This document shows, piece after piece, positions 7,236 through 16,742 of a DNA stretch of 20,937 nt. Under the pieces are notes generated by a model. The model was not told the DNA's origin. It made no database searches and saw only the letters and a program-made list of their open reading frames with translations. The stretch is from IMG/VR virus record IMGVR_UViG_2713896832_000003. The stretch is one strand, 5' to 3'. The DNA is from a virus. Lineage: Duplodnaviria; Heunggongvirae; Uroviricota; Caudoviricetes. Numbering within the stretch: the stretch's first letter is position 1; every line of letters starts with the position of its first letter. The position numbers and the translations under genes are program-made.

Positions 7236-8180
7236 TCACAACCAGCCGACGCTCTCTCGCCATTTATAATTAGTAACTTTATCATTTTCGCTTATTTTTT
7301 TAGATATAGAGCGCGGCTCTCTTCCTAGATACTCAGATATTTCTATCGGGGACAAATCAAAATCAACAAGCATGACTCTAAGTTTTTCCATTTCCTTTAA
7401 AGTCCAAGGCTTGCCATAATTTTCATAAAGAGATACCTTATGCTCCCTGATAGTTCGCTTTCTCTGAGTTTCACTTTCCCTCTGAAAAATCTCGCTTTTA
7501 AATTGTGAACGGAACTCTTTACAGAAGTTGTTATCAGTTTTTTTGTTATATAGATTGCTAAAAATAAGCTGGGATGCCGGGTCTAAATCAGGTGTGTTAA
7601 TAATGAAAACTTTGACCTTTTCCATATAGGGATATTCAATTTTACCCAATATGCTTAATTGCTTTATATTAAAAAAACCTCTCAAATCAAAAGATTTAAT
7701 GAGCTTTGATTGGATTACACTTTCAATCCTGCTTGCATTTAAATAACAGTACTTTGCCATTGGAAGGGCCCATACTACCAGTTGAGGAATATATTTTTCT
7801 AATGCAATGCTCTGCCAATCAGTATCAAAGGTTTGGCTTTTTGCTAGCATGTTTTTCGGCAAATCAGAATACATTGTGGTAGATGCCCATATCTTATAAT
7901 CATTCGCCAAGGCTTGATAGTATTTTGTGTGGTTATGAATTTTATAAGCTGACATGAAGCGATAAACGTCTTCGTCGTGACCAGCGTCGTAAATTGTTCG
8001 ATTTCCTCTAAGATAACCGTCGTAATGTTCGGTTATCCTTCTACCTACATTACAACTTACCCCAACGTAAACCACACGACTGAAAAGTCCTTTATGGACA
8101 ATAAGATAAACTCCGCTACAGCCAGATTTCCTGGCCTCTGATAGAGAACCTAAAAATCTCCATTCCATAATTAAATCCAT
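7236..8180 (-). CDS. GIY-YIG nuclease-domain protein with a C-terminal putative HTH region
   Basis: N-terminal SGVYLIVHKGLFSRVVYVGVSCNVGRRITEH fits the GIY...YIG...R...E pattern of GIY-YIG nucleases. The C-terminal ~60 aa (PWTLKEMEKLRVMLVDFDLSPIEISEYLGREPRSISKKIS) are HTH-like. AT-rich coding sequence. Confidence 0.7.
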   Translation of the reverse strand: MDLIMEWRFLGSLSEARKSGCSGVYLIVHKGLFSRVVYVGVSCNVGRRITEHYDGYLRGNRTIYDAGHDEDVYRFMSAYKIHNHTKYYQALANDYKIWASTTMYSDLPKNMLAKSQTFDTDWQSIALEKYIPQLVVWALPMAKYCYLNASRIESVIQSKLIKSFDLRGFFNIKQLSILGKIEYPYMEKVKVFIINTPDLDPASQLIFSNLYNKKTDNNFCKEFRSQFKSEIFQRESETQRKRTIREHKVSLYENYGKPWTLKEMEKLRVMLVDFDLSPIEISEYLGREPRSISKKISENDKVTNYKWRESVGWL

Positions 8181-8348
8181 AATTATTGCTACTGTTTTTG
8201 TTTATCATTATTTTCGTGAAACTTCAACAATTTTATCCAAAAGCTAAGGGCAAAGACTTATATAATTATACTTGTCATCGTTAGCGATTATATAGAGTAG
8301 TGGCGCTGACCTGCTCCCTGGTGATTCACACAGAATGCTGTTAGTAAT

Positions 8349-8372
8349 GTCCGTTCCTCGCTCTCAGCGGAC
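8349..8372. repeat. palindromic repeat, copy D (GTCCGTTCCTCGCTCTCAGCGGAC)
   Basis: Same arm sequences as copies A, B and C; about 170 nt upstream of the GIY-YIG gene start. Confidence 0.45.
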
Positions 8373-8390
8373 CTTCAGCTCAGTGATATC

Positions 8391-8414
8391 GTCCGCTCTG
8401 TGCAAAGAGCGGAC
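8391..8414. repeat. palindromic repeat, copy B (GTCCGCTCTGTGCAAAGAGCGGAC)
   Basis: 8-bp arms GTCCGCTC/GAGCGGAC around an 8-nt spacer; starts 42 nt after the start of copy D. Confidence 0.5.
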
Positions 8415-8727
8415 GTTGGTATGCAAGAGCCCTCCAAAAGTTGATGGTTGGTTTGCAGGGGGGCTTAAAGAAACTGCACTTATCAAGTTGAAGTTCTGTA
8501 TTCAGCGAAATCGTAGCACTCTGACGATAAGTAACTCCGGTACTCCGCTCTTCGATGAAGAACCAGAGTAATCCCCCCGAAAAACCAGCGCATCAAAATT
8601 GGATCTTCAGCGGTAGCTTATCGGCTATCGGAAGTACAGGTGTGGATTCGTGGTGAATTGCTTTGATAATAAACGATTAATACGGAAAAACGCATTAATC
8701 ATTTATTAGCTTTTAGTAAACCACAAT

Positions 8728-10077
8728 TTATTCCGTTTTACATATCATAGTAGTCGATTGGAGAATATAGTTTCTGGGAATGTACTCTTCAAAGTGTTCG
8801 TCCTTTTTAAATACATGAACTACATTTGGGAATAATTGATAGTCAACAGGGTGTATAGCGTTTGGATTATGGTACATGTACATGGCTGTACACCATGGTT
8901 CTTGATAGTTAGGGTCACTTACATCGGCTGAAAATGGATGTGGGGCTGCATCCTGATCAGTTTTAACACCACTGACGTACACTTTGAATCCACTCGCCTC
9001 TACACCTGCAAGAATTCCCATCCGGTTAAACTTAGGTATGGTTGCTTGAGTAGTGAGTAAAACGGCAGAAACATAATTATTTTGTTCTGAGCCAAAAAAG
9101 TTCGACTTGATACTTCTATTTTCATCTGTATGTCTTTCAATAGAAATGCCTGACTCAATATCAATCCCGTACAAATAGCTATGCAAGGCTTCGCTTGAGA
9201 AGGCCATGGACATTCTTTTTGAATAATCCTGCATTGCTATGACAAATGGTTTGTTCTTTGTATGGTTGAGTTCCCAGTAATGAACTTTCTCTGGCTCAGG
9301 GCAATGCCGGACTTTTTTTAATAAACTTCTTGCAAACTTAAAAGGCATGACATTTAGAACATGTTTTCTTAATTCATCCATCTGTTCATCGTTAATGACT
9401 TTTCTTTCAAGAGGGGCTTCTGCTTCAGCAATGCTTACAGCCTCTACAGCAATTTCCACTCCAAATTTAGATAGCAGAAAATCTGGTTGATTGTATTCTC
9501 TATTCATTTCAAAGTCGAGTTCATAAAATACAGCGTTCAAATATAATTCAAATAACCTTGAATTAAATGCATCACTTTGAAAATCCCTTATAAATATTCC
9601 ATCAGGATCTTTGAACCAGTATGCAAGTTCCTCAAGAACAATATATGCAGGGAAATGAAGAGGGTCTTCGAGGAGCATTTTTATATAAACATTCCTTTTT
9701 TTCGCTGGGACCTTACTCAAGAATAATGAAAAAGGTTTGGTTGATTCATCGCCTTGCATGAATGTACCATTTTGGTGCTGCGCCAGCATCTTTGGTATGT
9801 CATCGTTCAAATTATTAAGCAAGACATCCATTGAATCAAATGAAGCCAAGACGTTTATTGCTCTGAATTTTTTATCTAAATCCCGACCTAAGACTATTGC
9901 GTTAAAATCTTTATCAATATTGCATATGATTATTGTGGATAACAATGTTATCCCATTCCCCTCATATTTAAACCAGCGTATCTCCTCAGAAAATGTCTTA
10001 AGGTAAGGTGAGCGACCGTAAAAATAAATATCAAATTGTTCTTTGCTGATCTCACTGAAGTGTAATCCTGCGTTCAT
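8728..10077 (-). CDS. hypothetical protein, 449 aa, no recognised domain
   Basis: Long AT-rich ORF with an AAAAGGAA RBS before the ATG, upstream of and co-oriented with the GIY-YIG gene. A hairpin-plus-T-rich terminator candidate lies on the minus strand around 8672-8700. Confidence 0.7.
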   Translation of the reverse strand: MNAGLHFSEISKEQFDIYFYGRSPYLKTFSEEIRWFKYEGNGITLLSTIIICNIDKDFNAIVLGRDLDKKFRAINVLASFDSMDVLLNNLNDDIPKMLAQHQNGTFMQGDESTKPFSLFLSKVPAKKRNVYIKMLLEDPLHFPAYIVLEELAYWFKDPDGIFIRDFQSDAFNSRLFELYLNAVFYELDFEMNREYNQPDFLLSKFGVEIAVEAVSIAEAEAPLERKVINDEQMDELRKHVLNVMPFKFARSLLKKVRHCPEPEKVHYWELNHTKNKPFVIAMQDYSKRMSMAFSSEALHSYLYGIDIESGISIERHTDENRSIKSNFFGSEQNNYVSAVLLTTQATIPKFNRMGILAGVEASGFKVYVSGVKTDQDAAPHPFSADVSDPNYQEPWCTAMYMYHNPNAIHPVDYQLFPNVVHVFKKDEHFEEYIPRNYILQSTTMICKTE

Positions 10078-10361
10078 ACCAATTCCTTTTCAATGAATAA
10101 TTGGCCTTTAGGAGTGATTCCCTTTGTCTTTAATTCAGTTCTAACTAGTTCTTTAATCCAATAGCCTAAGCTCATCATGCAGTTGGATCATAAGACAACG
10201 CCCTATAGTGCTCGTGATACTATAGGGCATCTGACCACACTGTTAACTGGAGTAACGACTATGGCAGGAATACAGCATAACCAAACTCACCCCAAACTTA
10301 CATAGCGCTTTCTGGCCGTGAGCATAACAAGGTCCACTCCTCGCTCATAAGGGACAACCAT

Positions 10362-10394
10362 ACTCAAATCTCCCACATTGCAGGAGATTTGAGT
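10362..10394 (+). promoter_or_regulatory. 12-bp perfect inverted repeat whose right arm covers the RBS of the recombinase gene
   Basis: ACTCAAATCTCC (10362-10373), 9-nt loop, GGAGATTTGAGT (10383-10394), ending 1 nt before ATG 10395. Would sequester the Shine-Dalgarno sequence in the mRNA. Confidence 0.4.
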
Positions 10395-10997
10395 ATGAAC
10401 ACGTCACCGTGGAACAAAGACCGTATCATAGGCCAAAAAAGACCACTTCAGATATCTCATATCTGGGGTATCCGAATCCGACTTGAACTGGAAGGTAAAA
10501 CTCGCGATTTAGCTCTGTTCAACATGGCCCTGGATAGTAAGCTTCGAGGCTGTGATCTGGTCAAACTCAAAGTATCTGATGTTGCATATGGTGGCTCTGT
10601 TTCAAGCAGAGCAACGGTGTTGCAACAGAAAACCGGTAGCCCTGTTCAATTTGAGATAACCAAAGGGACAAGAGAAGCTGTTGCTGCATTGATACAGCTT
10701 AGCAATTTGCACAGTAAAGACTTCTTGTTTCGGTCTAGGGTCGGAACTAACCAGCACATTTCAACCCGGCAATACAACCGAATCTTTCATGGGGGGGTAG
10801 AAAAGCTTGGTCTCGAAGATTCGCTTTACAGCACACATTCCATGAGAAGAACAAAACCTTACCTGATCTACAAGAAAACCAAGAATCTCCGGGTGATCCA
10901 ACTTCTGTTGGGTCATAAGAAACTGGAAAGCACAGTCCGTTATCTGGGCATTGAAGTCGATGATGCGTTAGAGATTTCTGAATCGATTGAAGTCTAA
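10395..10997 (+). CDS. FimB/FimE-like short tyrosine recombinase (catalytic domain only, ~200 aa)
   Basis: Contains the tyrosine-recombinase catalytic residues in order (LRGCDL; QQKTGSPVQ; HSMRRT; LLLGHKKLESTVRYL) but no N-terminal core-binding domain, the FimB/FimE architecture. The ORF track starts at TTG 10389; ATG 10395 with an AGGAG RBS is more likely. Confidence 0.8.
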   Translation: MNTSPWNKDRIIGQKRPLQISHIWGIRIRLELEGKTRDLALFNMALDSKLRGCDLVKLKVSDVAYGGSVSSRATVLQQKTGSPVQFEITKGTREAVAALIQLSNLHSKDFLFRSRVGTNQHISTRQYNRIFHGGVEKLGLEDSLYSTHSMRRTKPYLIYKKTKNLRVIQLLLGHKKLESTVRYLGIEVDDALEISESIEV

Positions 10998-11003
10998 GGT
11001 TGT

Positions 11004-11025
11004 CAGGGCTGCAACAGCAGCCCTG
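11004..11025. terminator. hairpin just after the recombinase stop (CAGGGCTGC-AACA-GCAGCCCTG)
   Basis: 9-bp perfect stem 7 nt after the TAA; no clear U-tract, so terminator function is uncertain. Confidence 0.35.
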
Positions 11026-11356
11026 TGCCATAAGCGGAAGTATTTAACAACTATCAGTGTTGTTCAACAGATAAAGGGGCACTTGATTTTTTCTGTTCTC
11101 AGGAAATGATAAAAGCGCGTCGGTTCAAGCCTGCTTAACGGGAGTTTGTTAATCCTGTTGCCGTGACGTTTTGACACCATTATGATGGGGAGACACTTAA
11201 TGTATGAAGGTTCCGCCACTTATACCTGTCCAACAACTGCCTCGGATGTTTCTTTGTATGAATAAGTGGTAATGAGTAGTGAATCGCTAACAGTCACCCG
11301 AACAATCGGTGCCTGCAATTAATTCTATATTCTAAACGAGGGGGAGATTATTACAC

Positions 11357-12337
11357 ATGAAATTTAAGGACAAGAACCTTAAGGCTCTCGCGGAATGTAT
11401 CATAGGAGATAATAAGGCATTTCTGTATCGTTCAAGCAGTCACATCACTGAATTTTTCCAGGACTGCGGCATGGATGTTACTCATGACGGATCCACTCGG
11501 TGGAAATGGACGGCCCAGAGGCTTGAAGAACTTCTTTATGAGCCACAGTCAAAGCCACATACTTTGCCGGAAAGGTTTGTTCATGTGCTCAGAACTTTAA
11601 TGTTAAAAGAAGATGCAATGGATGACGATCCAGGAAGATTAAAGGCGCTTGAAGAACTGAACAAGCCTTTGATGCGGGAAGGCTATGAGGCATTCTATGG
11701 TGACGATCGCCTTTTGTATATACGCCATACCGATACCAAAACGGTTTCAGTCAGTAATAACCCTCATCGGCCCTTAACGCCTCACGAAGTAGAATGCAGA
11801 AGGTTACTGACCGCGTTTCTTGATACCTGCTCAGAAGATGAGTTAATAGAAGATATTCTCCTTCCTTTATTCCGGCAACTTGGTTTTCACCGGATAACAG
11901 CAGTGGGACATAAAGATAAAGCGCTGGAATACGGGAAAGACATCTGGATGAAGTTCACACTGCCAACTCAGCATGTTCTTTATTTCGGCATTCAGGCAAA
12001 AAAAGGTAAGTTGGATGCGTCCGGTGCCAGCAAATCTACGAATTCAAACGTGGCAGAAATCTTCAACCAGGTACTGATGATGCTTGGCCATGAAATATTT
12101 GACCCAGAAACAAATAGAAAGGTGCTGGTAGATCATGCCTTTATCGTTGCTGGCGGAGAAATTACTAAACAGGCGAGGAACTGGCTGGGCGGGAAACTTG
12201 ATGCCAGCAAAAGAAGCCAGATAATATTTATGGACCGGGAAGACATTCTTAATTTATATACTGTAAGTAATGTACCTCTGCCAACAGGTGCTCTCATCTC
12301 TGATGATGCCGTTAAGAACGATGATATTCCTTTCTAA
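11357..12337 (+). CDS. hypothetical protein with an Mrr-like (PD-(D/E)xK, D...QxK) nuclease motif in the C-terminal half
   Basis: Strong RBS GAGGGGGAG before the ATG. Motif ...EYGKDIWMKF...HVLYFGIQAKKGKL resembles the Asp...Gln-x-Lys catalytic signature of Mrr-type restriction endonuclease domains; the N-terminal ~160 aa are unassigned. Confidence 0.65.
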   Translation: MKFKDKNLKALAECIIGDNKAFLYRSSSHITEFFQDCGMDVTHDGSTRWKWTAQRLEELLYEPQSKPHTLPERFVHVLRTLMLKEDAMDDDPGRLKALEELNKPLMREGYEAFYGDDRLLYIRHTDTKTVSVSNNPHRPLTPHEVECRRLLTAFLDTCSEDELIEDILLPLFRQLGFHRITAVGHKDKALEYGKDIWMKFTLPTQHVLYFGIQAKKGKLDASGASKSTNSNVAEIFNQVLMMLGHEIFDPETNRKVLVDHAFIVAGGEITKQARNWLGGKLDASKRSQIIFMDREDILNLYTVSNVPLPTGALISDDAVKNDDIPF

Positions 12338-12561
12338 TCAGAAGTACGTCTTTTTCTGAAAGAATACGTGATAGGTAGCCACACCACACCTTTAGTGACC
12401 CCTTAATCTGGTAATATAACAGCCCGTATGAATGTCCGCGGCATCGCGGGCTGAAATTTATTAAAAATACTTATTCATCAAGCTGGAGTAGTTTGCCGAG
12501 TAACTGTAAACGCCCAACTTAACCGGACCATTCACTTTTAGATTGCTACCAGCAAACCAAC

Positions 12562-12585
12562 TTCCGTTTCTCGCTCAAAGCGGAC
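12562..12585. repeat. palindromic repeat, copy C (TTCCGTTTCTCGCTCAAAGCGGAC)
   Basis: Closest to copy D; lies ~225 nt after the Mrr-like gene at the right edge of the AT-rich island. Confidence 0.45.
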
Positions 12586-12764
12586 TAGAAGGTTAGCTTG
12601 CGTCGGACTTGGCGTATTTAAAGAAGTGCTGGTGGTAACTGGTTGTTGTGTTCCATTTCTACAAAACAAAATCACAGAAACTATACCCAATAGTTATATT
12701 GAATCAATGATGAGACAGCCTCATATTTATCAGAACTGGTGTACGTCCAATACAGGAGGTTGTC

Positions 12765-12854
12765 GTGCTGGTTCTCAAATATGCGCTAGCTATTGCGGCT
12801 GTAATGGCAATTTATTGTCTTGCTATTGTTCTTACGGATCGCCTTTCTGATTGA
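12765..12854 (+). CDS. candidate small hydrophobic peptide, 29 aa (MLVLKYALAIAAVMAIYCLAIVLTDRLSD)
   Basis: GTG start 5 nt after a perfect AGGAGG (12754-12759); single predicted transmembrane-like helix. Not in the ORF track because of size; overlaps the listed 12626..12850 Cys-rich ORF in another frame. Confidence 0.3.
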   Translation: MLVLKYALAIAAVMAIYCLAIVLTDRLSD

Positions 12855-13065
12855 TTTTATATTGGCGAGGTGACGGGAGTTAAGTAGAATTGCTGCGGGT
12901 GCTTGAGGCTATCTGCCTCAGGCATGAACACCAAAGGCAGATAGAGAAAAGCCCCAGTTAACATTACGCGTCCTGCAAGACGTTTAACATTAATCTGAGG
13001 CTCAATCTATGAACGGCAAATCTAGGTTAGCCTCTTACGTGCCGAAAGGCAAGGAGAAGCAGGCT

Positions 13066-13221
13066 ATGAAGCAGCAAAAGGCGATGTTAATCGCCCTGAT
13101 CGTCATCTGTTTAACCGTCATAATGACGGCACTGGTAACGAGGAAAGACCTCTGCGAGGTACGAATCCGAACCGGCCAGACGGAGGTCGCTGTCTTCACA
13201 GCTTACGAACCTGAGGAGTAA
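13066..13221 (+). CDS. hokD: Hok/Gef family membrane toxin HokD (RelF)
   Basis: 51-aa product MKQQKAMLIALIVICLTVIMTALVTRKDLCEVRIRTGQTEVAVFTAYEPEE matches recalled HokD; AAGGAG RBS at 13051-13056. The listed ORF 13009..13221 is an in-frame 19-codon upstream extension. Confidence 0.85.
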   Translation: MKQQKAMLIALIVICLTVIMTALVTRKDLCEVRIRTGQTEVAVFTAYEPEE

Positions 13222-13290
13222 GAGACCAGGCGGGGGAGAATCCCTCGCCACCTCTGATGTGTCAGGCATCCTCAACGCACCCGCACTTAA

Positions 13291-13320
13291 CCCGCTTCGG
13301 CGGGTTTTTGTTTTTATTTT
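13291..13320 (+). terminator. rho-independent terminator after hokD
   Basis: CCCGC-TTCG-GCGGG stem-loop followed by TTTTTGTTTTT. Confidence 0.6.
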
Positions 13321-16432: not shown

Positions 16433-16508
16433 GGCCCTTTAGCTCAGTGGTGAGAGCGAGCGACTCATAATCGACAGGTCGCTGGGTCAAATCCAGCAAG
16501 GGCCACCA
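16433..16508 (+). tRNA. tRNA, anticodon CAU, Ile2 (ileX-like)
   Basis: 76 nt; 7-bp acceptor stem GGCCCTT/AAGGGCC, 4-bp D stem, anticodon loop CTCATAA, discriminator A and encoded CCA. Resembles E. coli tRNA-Ile2 as recalled, but has two mismatches in the anticodon stem and G at T-loop position 54. Confidence 0.7.
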
Positions 16509-16509
16509 A

Positions 16510-16586
16510 CCGTCACCAGTTCATCAGGAAAGAGCGTCAACCCTTTAAGTTGAGTGTGCGAGGTTCGAGTCCCCGGTGGCGGTCCA
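16510..16586 (+). tRNA. atypical tRNA-like gene, anticodon loop CCTTTAA (anticodon UUU if functional); possibly a pseudo-tRNA
   Basis: Folds as a cloverleaf with encoded CCA, but has C1-G72, C at position 8, C at position 33 and one T-stem mismatch. Confidence 0.4.
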
Positions 16587-16588
16587 GT

Positions 16589-16664
<76 letters not shown>

Positions 16665-16667
16665 TAT

Positions 16668-16742
<75 letters not shown>

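Follow-up and report, generated by a model that had tools for sequence, protein, structure and literature searches.

A conserved 29-codon reading frame upstream of hok/sok in Escherichia and Shigella prophages probably encodes a small membrane peptide

Type I toxins of enterobacteria are very small proteins with one hydrophobic helix that reside on mobile or variable DNA, and their representatives range in size from IbsC (19 aa) through ShoB (26 aa), DinQ (27 aa), TisB and ZorO (29 aa each) to Ldr (35 aa) and Hok (about 50 aa). A similar size class and architecture are represented by small inner-membrane proteins that serve as subunits or modulators (KdpF and PmrR, 29 aa each; MgtS, 31 aa; CydX, 37 aa; AcrZ, 49 aa), and known small membrane proteins act through helix-helix packing. 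Phage morons, such as lambda bor and lom, are autonomous cassettes, each with a promoter and a gene, that have inserted between other phage genes, and mok is a short reading frame located inside the hok mRNA and needed for hok translation. The 29-codon open reading frame (ORF) described here, which lies beside a hok/sok module, resembles each of these systems in some respects and departs from each of them in others. As with the type I toxins, its product is very small, has one hydrophobic helix and is encoded on variable DNA; unlike them, it comes without a detectable antitoxin RNA gene and without a long structured 5' UTR that would hide the ribosome-binding site, and the peptide has no sequence similarity to those families. 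It falls into the size class and architecture of KdpF, PmrR, MgtS, CydX and AcrZ, with a ribosome-binding site that is strong and accessible, albeit with no sequence similarity to these proteins. Helix packing is expected to leave one face conserved and the other variable, and such a pattern is weakly apparent for the peptide. Genes of the KdpF type are, however, located in the operon of their partner or co-regulated with it, whereas the ORF stands alone in a prophage cassette, and no partner could be identified for it. With the morons the cassette has in common that it is self-contained, has a putative promoter of its own, is present or absent independently of its neighbours among related lambdoid phages and lies at a mosaic boundary, although it is much smaller than classical morons and has no terminator of its own. 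Finally, the ORF shares with mok the physical association of a short reading frame with hok; in contrast to mok, it precedes the hok promoter, has no sequence relationship to mok and also occurs where hok is missing.

The stretch of DNA analysed as a whole (hereafter, the window; 20,937 nt) is matched at 100% by many E. coli chromosomes (e.g., NZ_CP031653) and represents a defective Qin-type lambdoid prophage adjoining rspB. Its gene order runs from an integrase, an excisionase, an exonuclease, ydfD, dicB, a replication-region gene and a DUF977 gene, through a four-gene cargo island, the ORF interval, hokD, rem, a DUF968 gene, rusA and Q, to a group of tRNAs followed by truncated lysis and tail genes (coordinates of the features under study are collected in Table 1). 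In the tRNA region (16433-16742), ARAGORN places four tRNAs, Met-CAT, Lys-TTT (16510-16586), Thr-TGT and Gly-TCC, and Rfam and PGAP report three, with Lys-TTT missing and with the CAT tRNA named Ile by PGAP. The cargo island encodes two minus-strand products of 314 and 449 aa, together with a tyrosine integrase (PF00589) that is short, at 202 aa, and a protein of 326 aa; its four genes are without known families, the integrase domain being the only Pfam match among their products, and the 326-aa protein, the sole one scanned with PADLOC, gave no match. In other genomes, the same spot is occupied by a YobI NTPase, DUF4145, QueH or a hydrolase, and altogether 41 unrelated upstream contexts (these and the island of the window included) are found among 121 loci, so that the site looks like a prophage cargo or defence hotspot. 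On the 3' side of the 326-aa gene, a hairpin is seen in the sequence (CAGCCCG...CGGGCTG, then AAATTTATT, at 12420-12452), on which the promoter/terminator scanner gave no report; it is probably the terminator of that cargo gene and would insulate the small ORF from upstream transcription.

Table 1. Positions of the ORF, its putative signals and neighbouring features in the window
Feature	Position	Strand	Details
Cargo island	7236-12337		Between the DUF977 gene and the 29-codon ORF
Conserved non-coding block	12563-12698	+	Accompanies the ORF in most prophages
74-aa Cys/Gly/Ser-rich ORF	12626-12850	+	GTG start; rejected as a gene
Putative sigma-70 promoter	12699-12727	+	TTGAAT 12699-12704, 17-nt spacer, CATATT 12722-12727; predicted start near 12734
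Shine-Dalgarno sequence	12754-12759	+	AGGAGG; 5-nt spacer TTGTC before GTG 12765
29-codon ORF	12765-12854	+	GTG start 12765-12767; TGA stop 12852-12854; product MLVLKYALAIAAVMAIYCLAIVLTDRLSD
hok promoter	12862-12890	+	TTGGCG at 12862, 17 nt, TAGAAT ending at 12890; 7 nt after the ORF stop
hok mRNA leader and sok region	12897-13071		Rfam RF01794, 111.7 bits
mok frame	start at 13009		
hokD CDS	13066-13221	+	Usual downstream neighbour of the ORF
hok terminator	13289-13306		

An initial annotation, made from the sequence of the window, had drawn attention to a GTG codon at 12765 that follows AGGAGG by 5 nt and opens a 29-aa hydrophobic frame, overlapping a 74-aa ORF in another frame; the sequence and the ORF listing confirm these assignments. 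The distance to hokD, given there as about 200 bp, amounts to 211 nt between the ORF stop and the hokD ATG. The predicted helix with a short polar tail is likewise borne out by the hydropathy of the peptide, with a GRAVY value of 1.60 (range given, 1.6-1.95), a Kyte-Doolittle mean of 2.38 over residues 6-24 (range given, 2.4-2.8) and a tail containing D, R, S and D. With fewer than 60 aa and a predicted transmembrane helix, the peptide is a small hydrophobic peptide of the kind found among type I toxins; non-toxic small membrane proteins, however, are matched just as well by its size and composition. The arrangement AGGAGG-N5-RTG is observed twice in the window versus 0.25 expected (3 of 100 shuffles reach two), and AGGAGG alone shows no enrichment there; because this within-window signal is weak, the case for a gene rests on the comparison with relatives.

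This comparison encompassed 135 loci, among which 30 different alleles are seen at the DNA level and 21 at the peptide level, with substitutions counted by parsimony on a neighbour-joining tree. Conservation of the peptide frame in related sequences was found throughout: the 29-codon frame has no indels and no premature stops in any of the 135 loci, and a single allele is without the stop codon. Substitutions scored in this frame comprise 37 synonymous, 29 non-synonymous and no stop-affecting changes, which is an excess of synonymous changes over the expected fraction of 0.31 (P = 2.6e-5), as compared to 11, 55 and 0 in the 74-aa frame (P = 0.998) and 15, 40 and 11 in the third frame (P = 0.94), all P values being approximate owing to the relatedness of the sequences and to recombination among them. 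Some of the loci had been retrieved by means of a pattern that lies within the ORF, which was controlled by leaving out the retrieval codons; when the start codon and the seven retrieval codons are omitted, 31 synonymous vs. 27 non-synonymous changes are left in the 29-aa frame (P = 0.001). Changes at codon positions 1, 2 and 3 of this frame are distributed as 18:10:38, the replacements are all conservative (A/V/T, I/V, M/T, D/E/N, R/H, L/F, S/T), and omega is roughly 0.36, for a family whose total divergence is small. Two divergent alleles that were found by DNA homology keep the frame. The allele of E. coli 746 shows 9 synonymous vs. 4-5 conservative changes. The allele of pINV, the Shigella/EIEC invasion plasmid, differs at ~18 of 87 nt (~20%) and starts with ATG instead of GTG, with length and stop unchanged, between flanks that carry four indels and upstream of a decayed hok leader. 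In an alignment of 76 distinct homologue rows, indels flank the ORF at 12625-12741 on one side and at 12860 and 12875 on the other (the smaller ones at 12681-12688, 12730-12741, 12860 and 12875). Every class has a GTG or ATG start, preceded at a distance of 5 nt by AGGAGG or a similar motif, the Shine-Dalgarno sequence of the divergent classes reading AGGAGG, AGGAGA, GGGAGG or AGGGGG, though the surrounding leader differs. The locus thereby displays the properties looked for in small-protein genes, namely frame-specific purifying selection with a preserved length, and a start codon and ribosome-binding site conserved in relatives. We conclude from these comparative counts that the 29-aa frame is under purifying selection as a protein.

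The peptide positions that are invariant across alleles (L2, L4, K5, L8, A9, I10, A12, V13, I16, Y17, C18, L19, L23 and D29) lie mainly on one helical face, and the conservation moment peaks at 100 degrees. This helical-face signal is weak, with P values for helical periodicity of about 0.04 in a binary test and 0.19 in a weighted test. The concentration of invariant residues on one face suggests that the helix packs against another helix, contributed either by the peptide itself or by a larger membrane protein.

The sequence common to all classes extends from about 12699 to 12869 (~170 bp) and begins with TTGAAT-17 nt-CATATT, which we interpret as a putative weak sigma-70 promoter. It matches the consensus at 8 of 12 positions, which explains why the scanner was silent on it. 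The CATATT box sits inside CATATTTATCAG, a segment that is nearly invariant across every class; the spacer keeps its 17-nt length with a divergent sequence, and the -35 element is altered to TCTCAT, and thus lost, in 11 loci. Some 25 variable nucleotides separate CATATTTATCAG from the Shine-Dalgarno sequence. A possible LexA box in the leader was rejected by eye, its spacing being wrong. On the upstream side, BLAST alignments start at 12560-12571, beyond which the cargo differs. The non-coding block that follows contains indels that break every long ORF inside it, and it is replaced by unrelated sequence in the class comprising E. coli B and phage HannyBb, and largely so on pINV. On the downstream side, hok is present in 98 of the 112 loci with enough sequence, DUF1971/nin genes without hok follow in 12, and the other 2 are pINV copies; hok without the ORF is found in ST131 and O157. 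Because both flanks vary and hok also occurs without the ORF, the ORF, its Shine-Dalgarno sequence and the putative promoter together constitute a separable mini-cassette of ~170 bp at the right edge of the cargo hotspot. The hok promoter, on the other side of this edge, is part of the neighbouring module and not of the peptide gene. In the hokD loci of O157 and ST131 that are without the ORF, the hok module still has the final 7-10 codons of the ORF at its left end (O157:H7 segment 2440-2560 and ST131 segment 2480-2530); the O157 remnant (last ~10 codons) is decayed and carries a 4-nt indel, and in ST131 queH ends just before the remnant.

With respect to distribution, a 341-bp segment of the window (12560-12900) has matches in 3062 of 5426 complete E. 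coli genomes, and at least 80% of it is present in 1689 of them (~31%). The cassette also occurs in the sequenced phages Tritos, Evi, mEp460_ev081 and HannyBb, and a pattern scan of IMG/VR yielded 120 loci. A scan of one genome per species with a degenerate-codon motif, which misses alleles changed within AVMAIYCL (e.g., the pINV allele), recovered E. ruysiae, S. flexneri and one E. coli-like contig, the other 39 matches appearing to be due to chance. This 2.6-kb contig (CAUGKJ010000222.1), from a metagenome-assembled genome labelled 'uncultured Haemophilus sp.', carries an E. coli-type small ORF, and its upstream 80 nt are identical to those of ten E. coli-derived loci; its assignment to Haemophilus is probably a binning artefact. 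Protein searches with 40-aa and 34-aa translations from the window returned Escherichia relatives only (including E. albertii), at ≥78% and ≥85% identity, respectively, with no remote homologues; the second limit applies to every match in a library of 1.84 billion proteins. As judged from these collections, the ORF is found only in Escherichia and Shigella, and the family is very young and narrow, as a recently arisen ORF with marginal function would also be. The pINV copy (about 79% identical, 143 plasmid records) is located ~300 nt upstream of icsP, and in pWR100 (segment 2930-3350) an intact 29-aa ORF with an ATG start is followed by a decayed hok promoter and leader with several indels, and then by icsP. 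The pINV region upstream of icsP is a relic of this prophage segment. The table of transcription starts from dRNA-seq of Shigella M90T pWR100 contains no start within 90726-91318 on the ORF strand, and therefore none for the pINV copy under the conditions sampled, which is weak negative evidence on expression in a region that we take to be H-NS-silenced.

The initial annotation had described the peptide as unannotated, which is correct for the RefSeq record identical to the window at 100% and incorrect in general, as homologues are annotated elsewhere: by PGAP in NZ_OW968111 (WP_000960667.1), as 'conserved hypothetical protein' or 'membrane protein' in the GenBank records of REL606, BL21 and others, and under the Prokka name CP037924_00134 on pWR100. 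In phage HannyBb (segment 2454-2743), two hypothetical CDSs are placed on the minus strand over the region and the plus-strand 29-aa ORF is not called, which is probably a mis-annotation. Searches with the 29-aa peptide gave no match in Pfam, NCBIfam and PHROG (E ≤ 10), PADLOC (E ≤ 1) or PDB sequences, and profile searches with the 74-aa ORF yielded nothing of use. In the collection of papers searched in full text, there was no match for the peptide sequence or for hok-upstream small ORFs (a preprint on small proteins of CFT073 came without matchable sequences, and the Pro-SMP paper had no bearing on the peptide). K-12, the strain of most small-protein surveys, is without the ORF, and relBE abuts hokD there; the gene has been left without a family, name or study probably because K-12 replaced the ORF with relBE. 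The K-12 protein YnfS (29 aa, also in Qin) was considered as a homologue and proved unrelated.

Several alternative readings of this interval bear on whether the 29-codon frame is a gene. It had been anticipated that only one of the two overlapping frames is real, and the relatives decide for the shorter one, which is uninterrupted and selected. There is practically no chance that the 74-aa Cys/Gly/Ser-rich ORF is a gene, in spite of its being the longest in the interval and having one marginal PHROG match (phrog_24899, E = 0.087): it has no Shine-Dalgarno sequence, the E. coli B/HannyBb and pINV classes, with their unrelated upstream sequence, do not have its N-terminal half, and it is ruled out, as far as comparative evidence goes, by its substitution counts together with two deletions in the 76 distinct rows, one of 1 nt at 12667 that throws 16 rows out of frame and one of 14 nt (12625-12638) that takes away the start in 7. 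The region might, instead, be non-coding and conserved as DNA or RNA, for instance because it assists the hok promoter from upstream or belongs to a hok transcript with an extended 5' end, with a merely fortuitous frame. Consistent with this, the ORF ends at a short distance from the hok -35 element, its last ~7 codons are retained in the hok modules of ST131 and O157, hok is the prevalent downstream neighbour, no start was mapped for the pINV copy, and with ~68 substitutions (expected stop-creating fraction of about 1%) the absence of stops would not by itself be significant. Such a reading would leave unexplained, however, that the synonymous excess is specific to the 29-aa frame and that second codon positions are the least changed, that the start in pINV switches from GTG to ATG rather than being lost, that the ORF is free of indels between two flanks that are not, and that intact copies persist where hok is absent or decayed; neither was any conserved RNA structure found, and we consider this account quite unlikely. 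A cis-acting leader peptide or upstream ORF, whose translation would regulate transcription of hok or the nin region with the peptide itself being functionless, would fit a short ORF that has a strong ribosome-binding site and directly precedes the hok unit, no terminator being predicted in between. It appears highly improbable in view of selection that acts on the amino-acid sequence beyond the act of translation, of a location upstream of hok's own promoter combined with occurrence in the absence of hok, and of a downstream sequence with no alternative terminator/antiterminator structure and no excess structure as would be expected of a leader or attenuator.

A separate question is raised by the classification of the peptide as a candidate type I toxin in the initial annotation, according to which the product would depolarise the inner membrane and be restrained by a small RNA, either cis-antisense or encoded nearby. 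The peptide does resemble IbsC, ShoB, TisB and ZorO in size and in its combination of one hydrophobic helix with a short polar tail, the ORF adjoins another type I system, and an antisense transcript across the ORF would be produced from a minus-strand site at 12883-12854 (TTAACT, 18 nt, TAAAAT), which overlaps the hok -35 region divergently. The recommended search for an antisense promoter and RNA, made in silico, has, however, returned nothing beyond this one -10-like box, which was rejected as a promoter: it is absent from copies without hok and polymorphic, reading TAAAAT (ATTTTA on the plus strand) in the clade of the window, or about 35% of loci, and TGAAAT (ATTTCA, without the key A2) in most others, owing to a T->C change in ~65%. 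Because both flanks of the cassette are interchangeable, an antitoxin would have to lie inside the core of ~170 bp, where no signal for one was detected; no minus-strand terminator was found, and an Rfam search of the region at E ≤ 10 gave no family besides sok, the RNA partner of hok. Nor is there any sign of a stable, structured 5' region, as the predicted leader and mRNA fold no better than shuffled sequences (z of +0.28 and -0.8), and folding of the alignment yields a covariation term of only -0.95, with a single compensatory pair among 34. Given a transcription start farther upstream, a stem between AUCAG (12729-12733) and CUGGU (codons 2-3) could enclose the Shine-Dalgarno sequence and the start codon; this stem (12729-12773, AUCAG(N)AC with GU(G)CUGGU) would exist only in transcripts starting upstream of 12729, and it is kept in all seven divergent sequences with no covariation, being uninformative because it is invariant on both sides. 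An inverted repeat with anti-Shine-Dalgarno potential (12548-12565/12755-12772) was set aside, its left arm lying outside the conserved block. Among toxin families, profiles of Hok/Gef (PF01848), Ldr, TisB, ShoB, Ibs, DinQ and ZorO do not match the peptide, and the idea of a truncated Hok duplicate was dropped for want of similarity, BLASTP against the Hok of the window giving no alignment at E ≤ 100. Overall, the type I classification is not supported and we regard it as unlikely, toxicity of the peptide being possible but unsupported.

We thus favour the interpretation that ORF 12765-12854 is probably a genuine small protein-coding gene of Escherichia/Shigella lambdoid (Qin-type) prophages and phages, whose product would most likely be an uncharacterised single-pass member of the known class of small membrane proteins. 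The cassette assorts independently of both flanks, in a phage-moron-like manner, at the right border of the cargo hotspot, a hypervariable stretch that has the DUF977 gene on one side and the nin/hok region on the other. Its transcription may start near 12734 or come by read-through from the upstream early operon, and the strong, largely unstructured AGGAGG-N5-GTG site would then direct translation of the 29-residue peptide. Residues from about 2 to 24 are predicted to insert into the inner membrane as one transmembrane helix, the K5 end probably facing inwards and the acidic DRLSD tail outwards, and the pattern of invariant residues suggests that the peptide would act via packing of its helix against a second copy or against a larger membrane protein; membrane damage on overexpression would be plausible. 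The gene is not dependent on hok, since intact copies exist without it. At the same time, its transcript would probably read into the hok/sok unit, because no terminator is convincingly predicted between the ORF and the hok promoter.

As it stands, this result is a well-supported annotation correction and not a new mechanism. Should the peptide be made, a prophage-borne membrane peptide would abut a classic hok/sok killer locus, and its gene would serve as a boundary marker of a hotspot for cargo (probably defence genes), which may help in annotating such hotspots and in defining their limits. If it were toxic or linked to Hok, prophage loci with hokD would need reinterpretation. A more far-reaching proposal, which we find unlikely, is that of a new Escherichia/Shigella membrane-active family functionally coupled to Hok, represented either by a second toxic or pore-modulating peptide that is co-transcribed with hok and indirectly shares Sok control, or by an antitoxin-less toxin-like or exclusion peptide, expressed by the prophage at the border of its defence-cargo hotspot; were it true, the intact pINV copy upstream of icsP would be a functional relic and not junk.

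Two base-pairing possibilities were noted around the hok module. A pairing of 12717-12730 with the mok ribosome-binding region (12989-13002) was rejected, its strong part (AGCCTC) not being conserved in the B and pINV classes. The complementarity between the 5' and 3' ends of hok (tac/fbi) seems to continue beyond the predicted hok +1 on its upstream side: visual inspection suggests that TGC (12894-12896) can pair with GCA (13281-13283), and GACGGGAGTTAAGT (12872-12885) with 13285-13298. This extended pairing would be relevant solely to 5'-extended transcripts, such as those produced by read-through from the small ORF.
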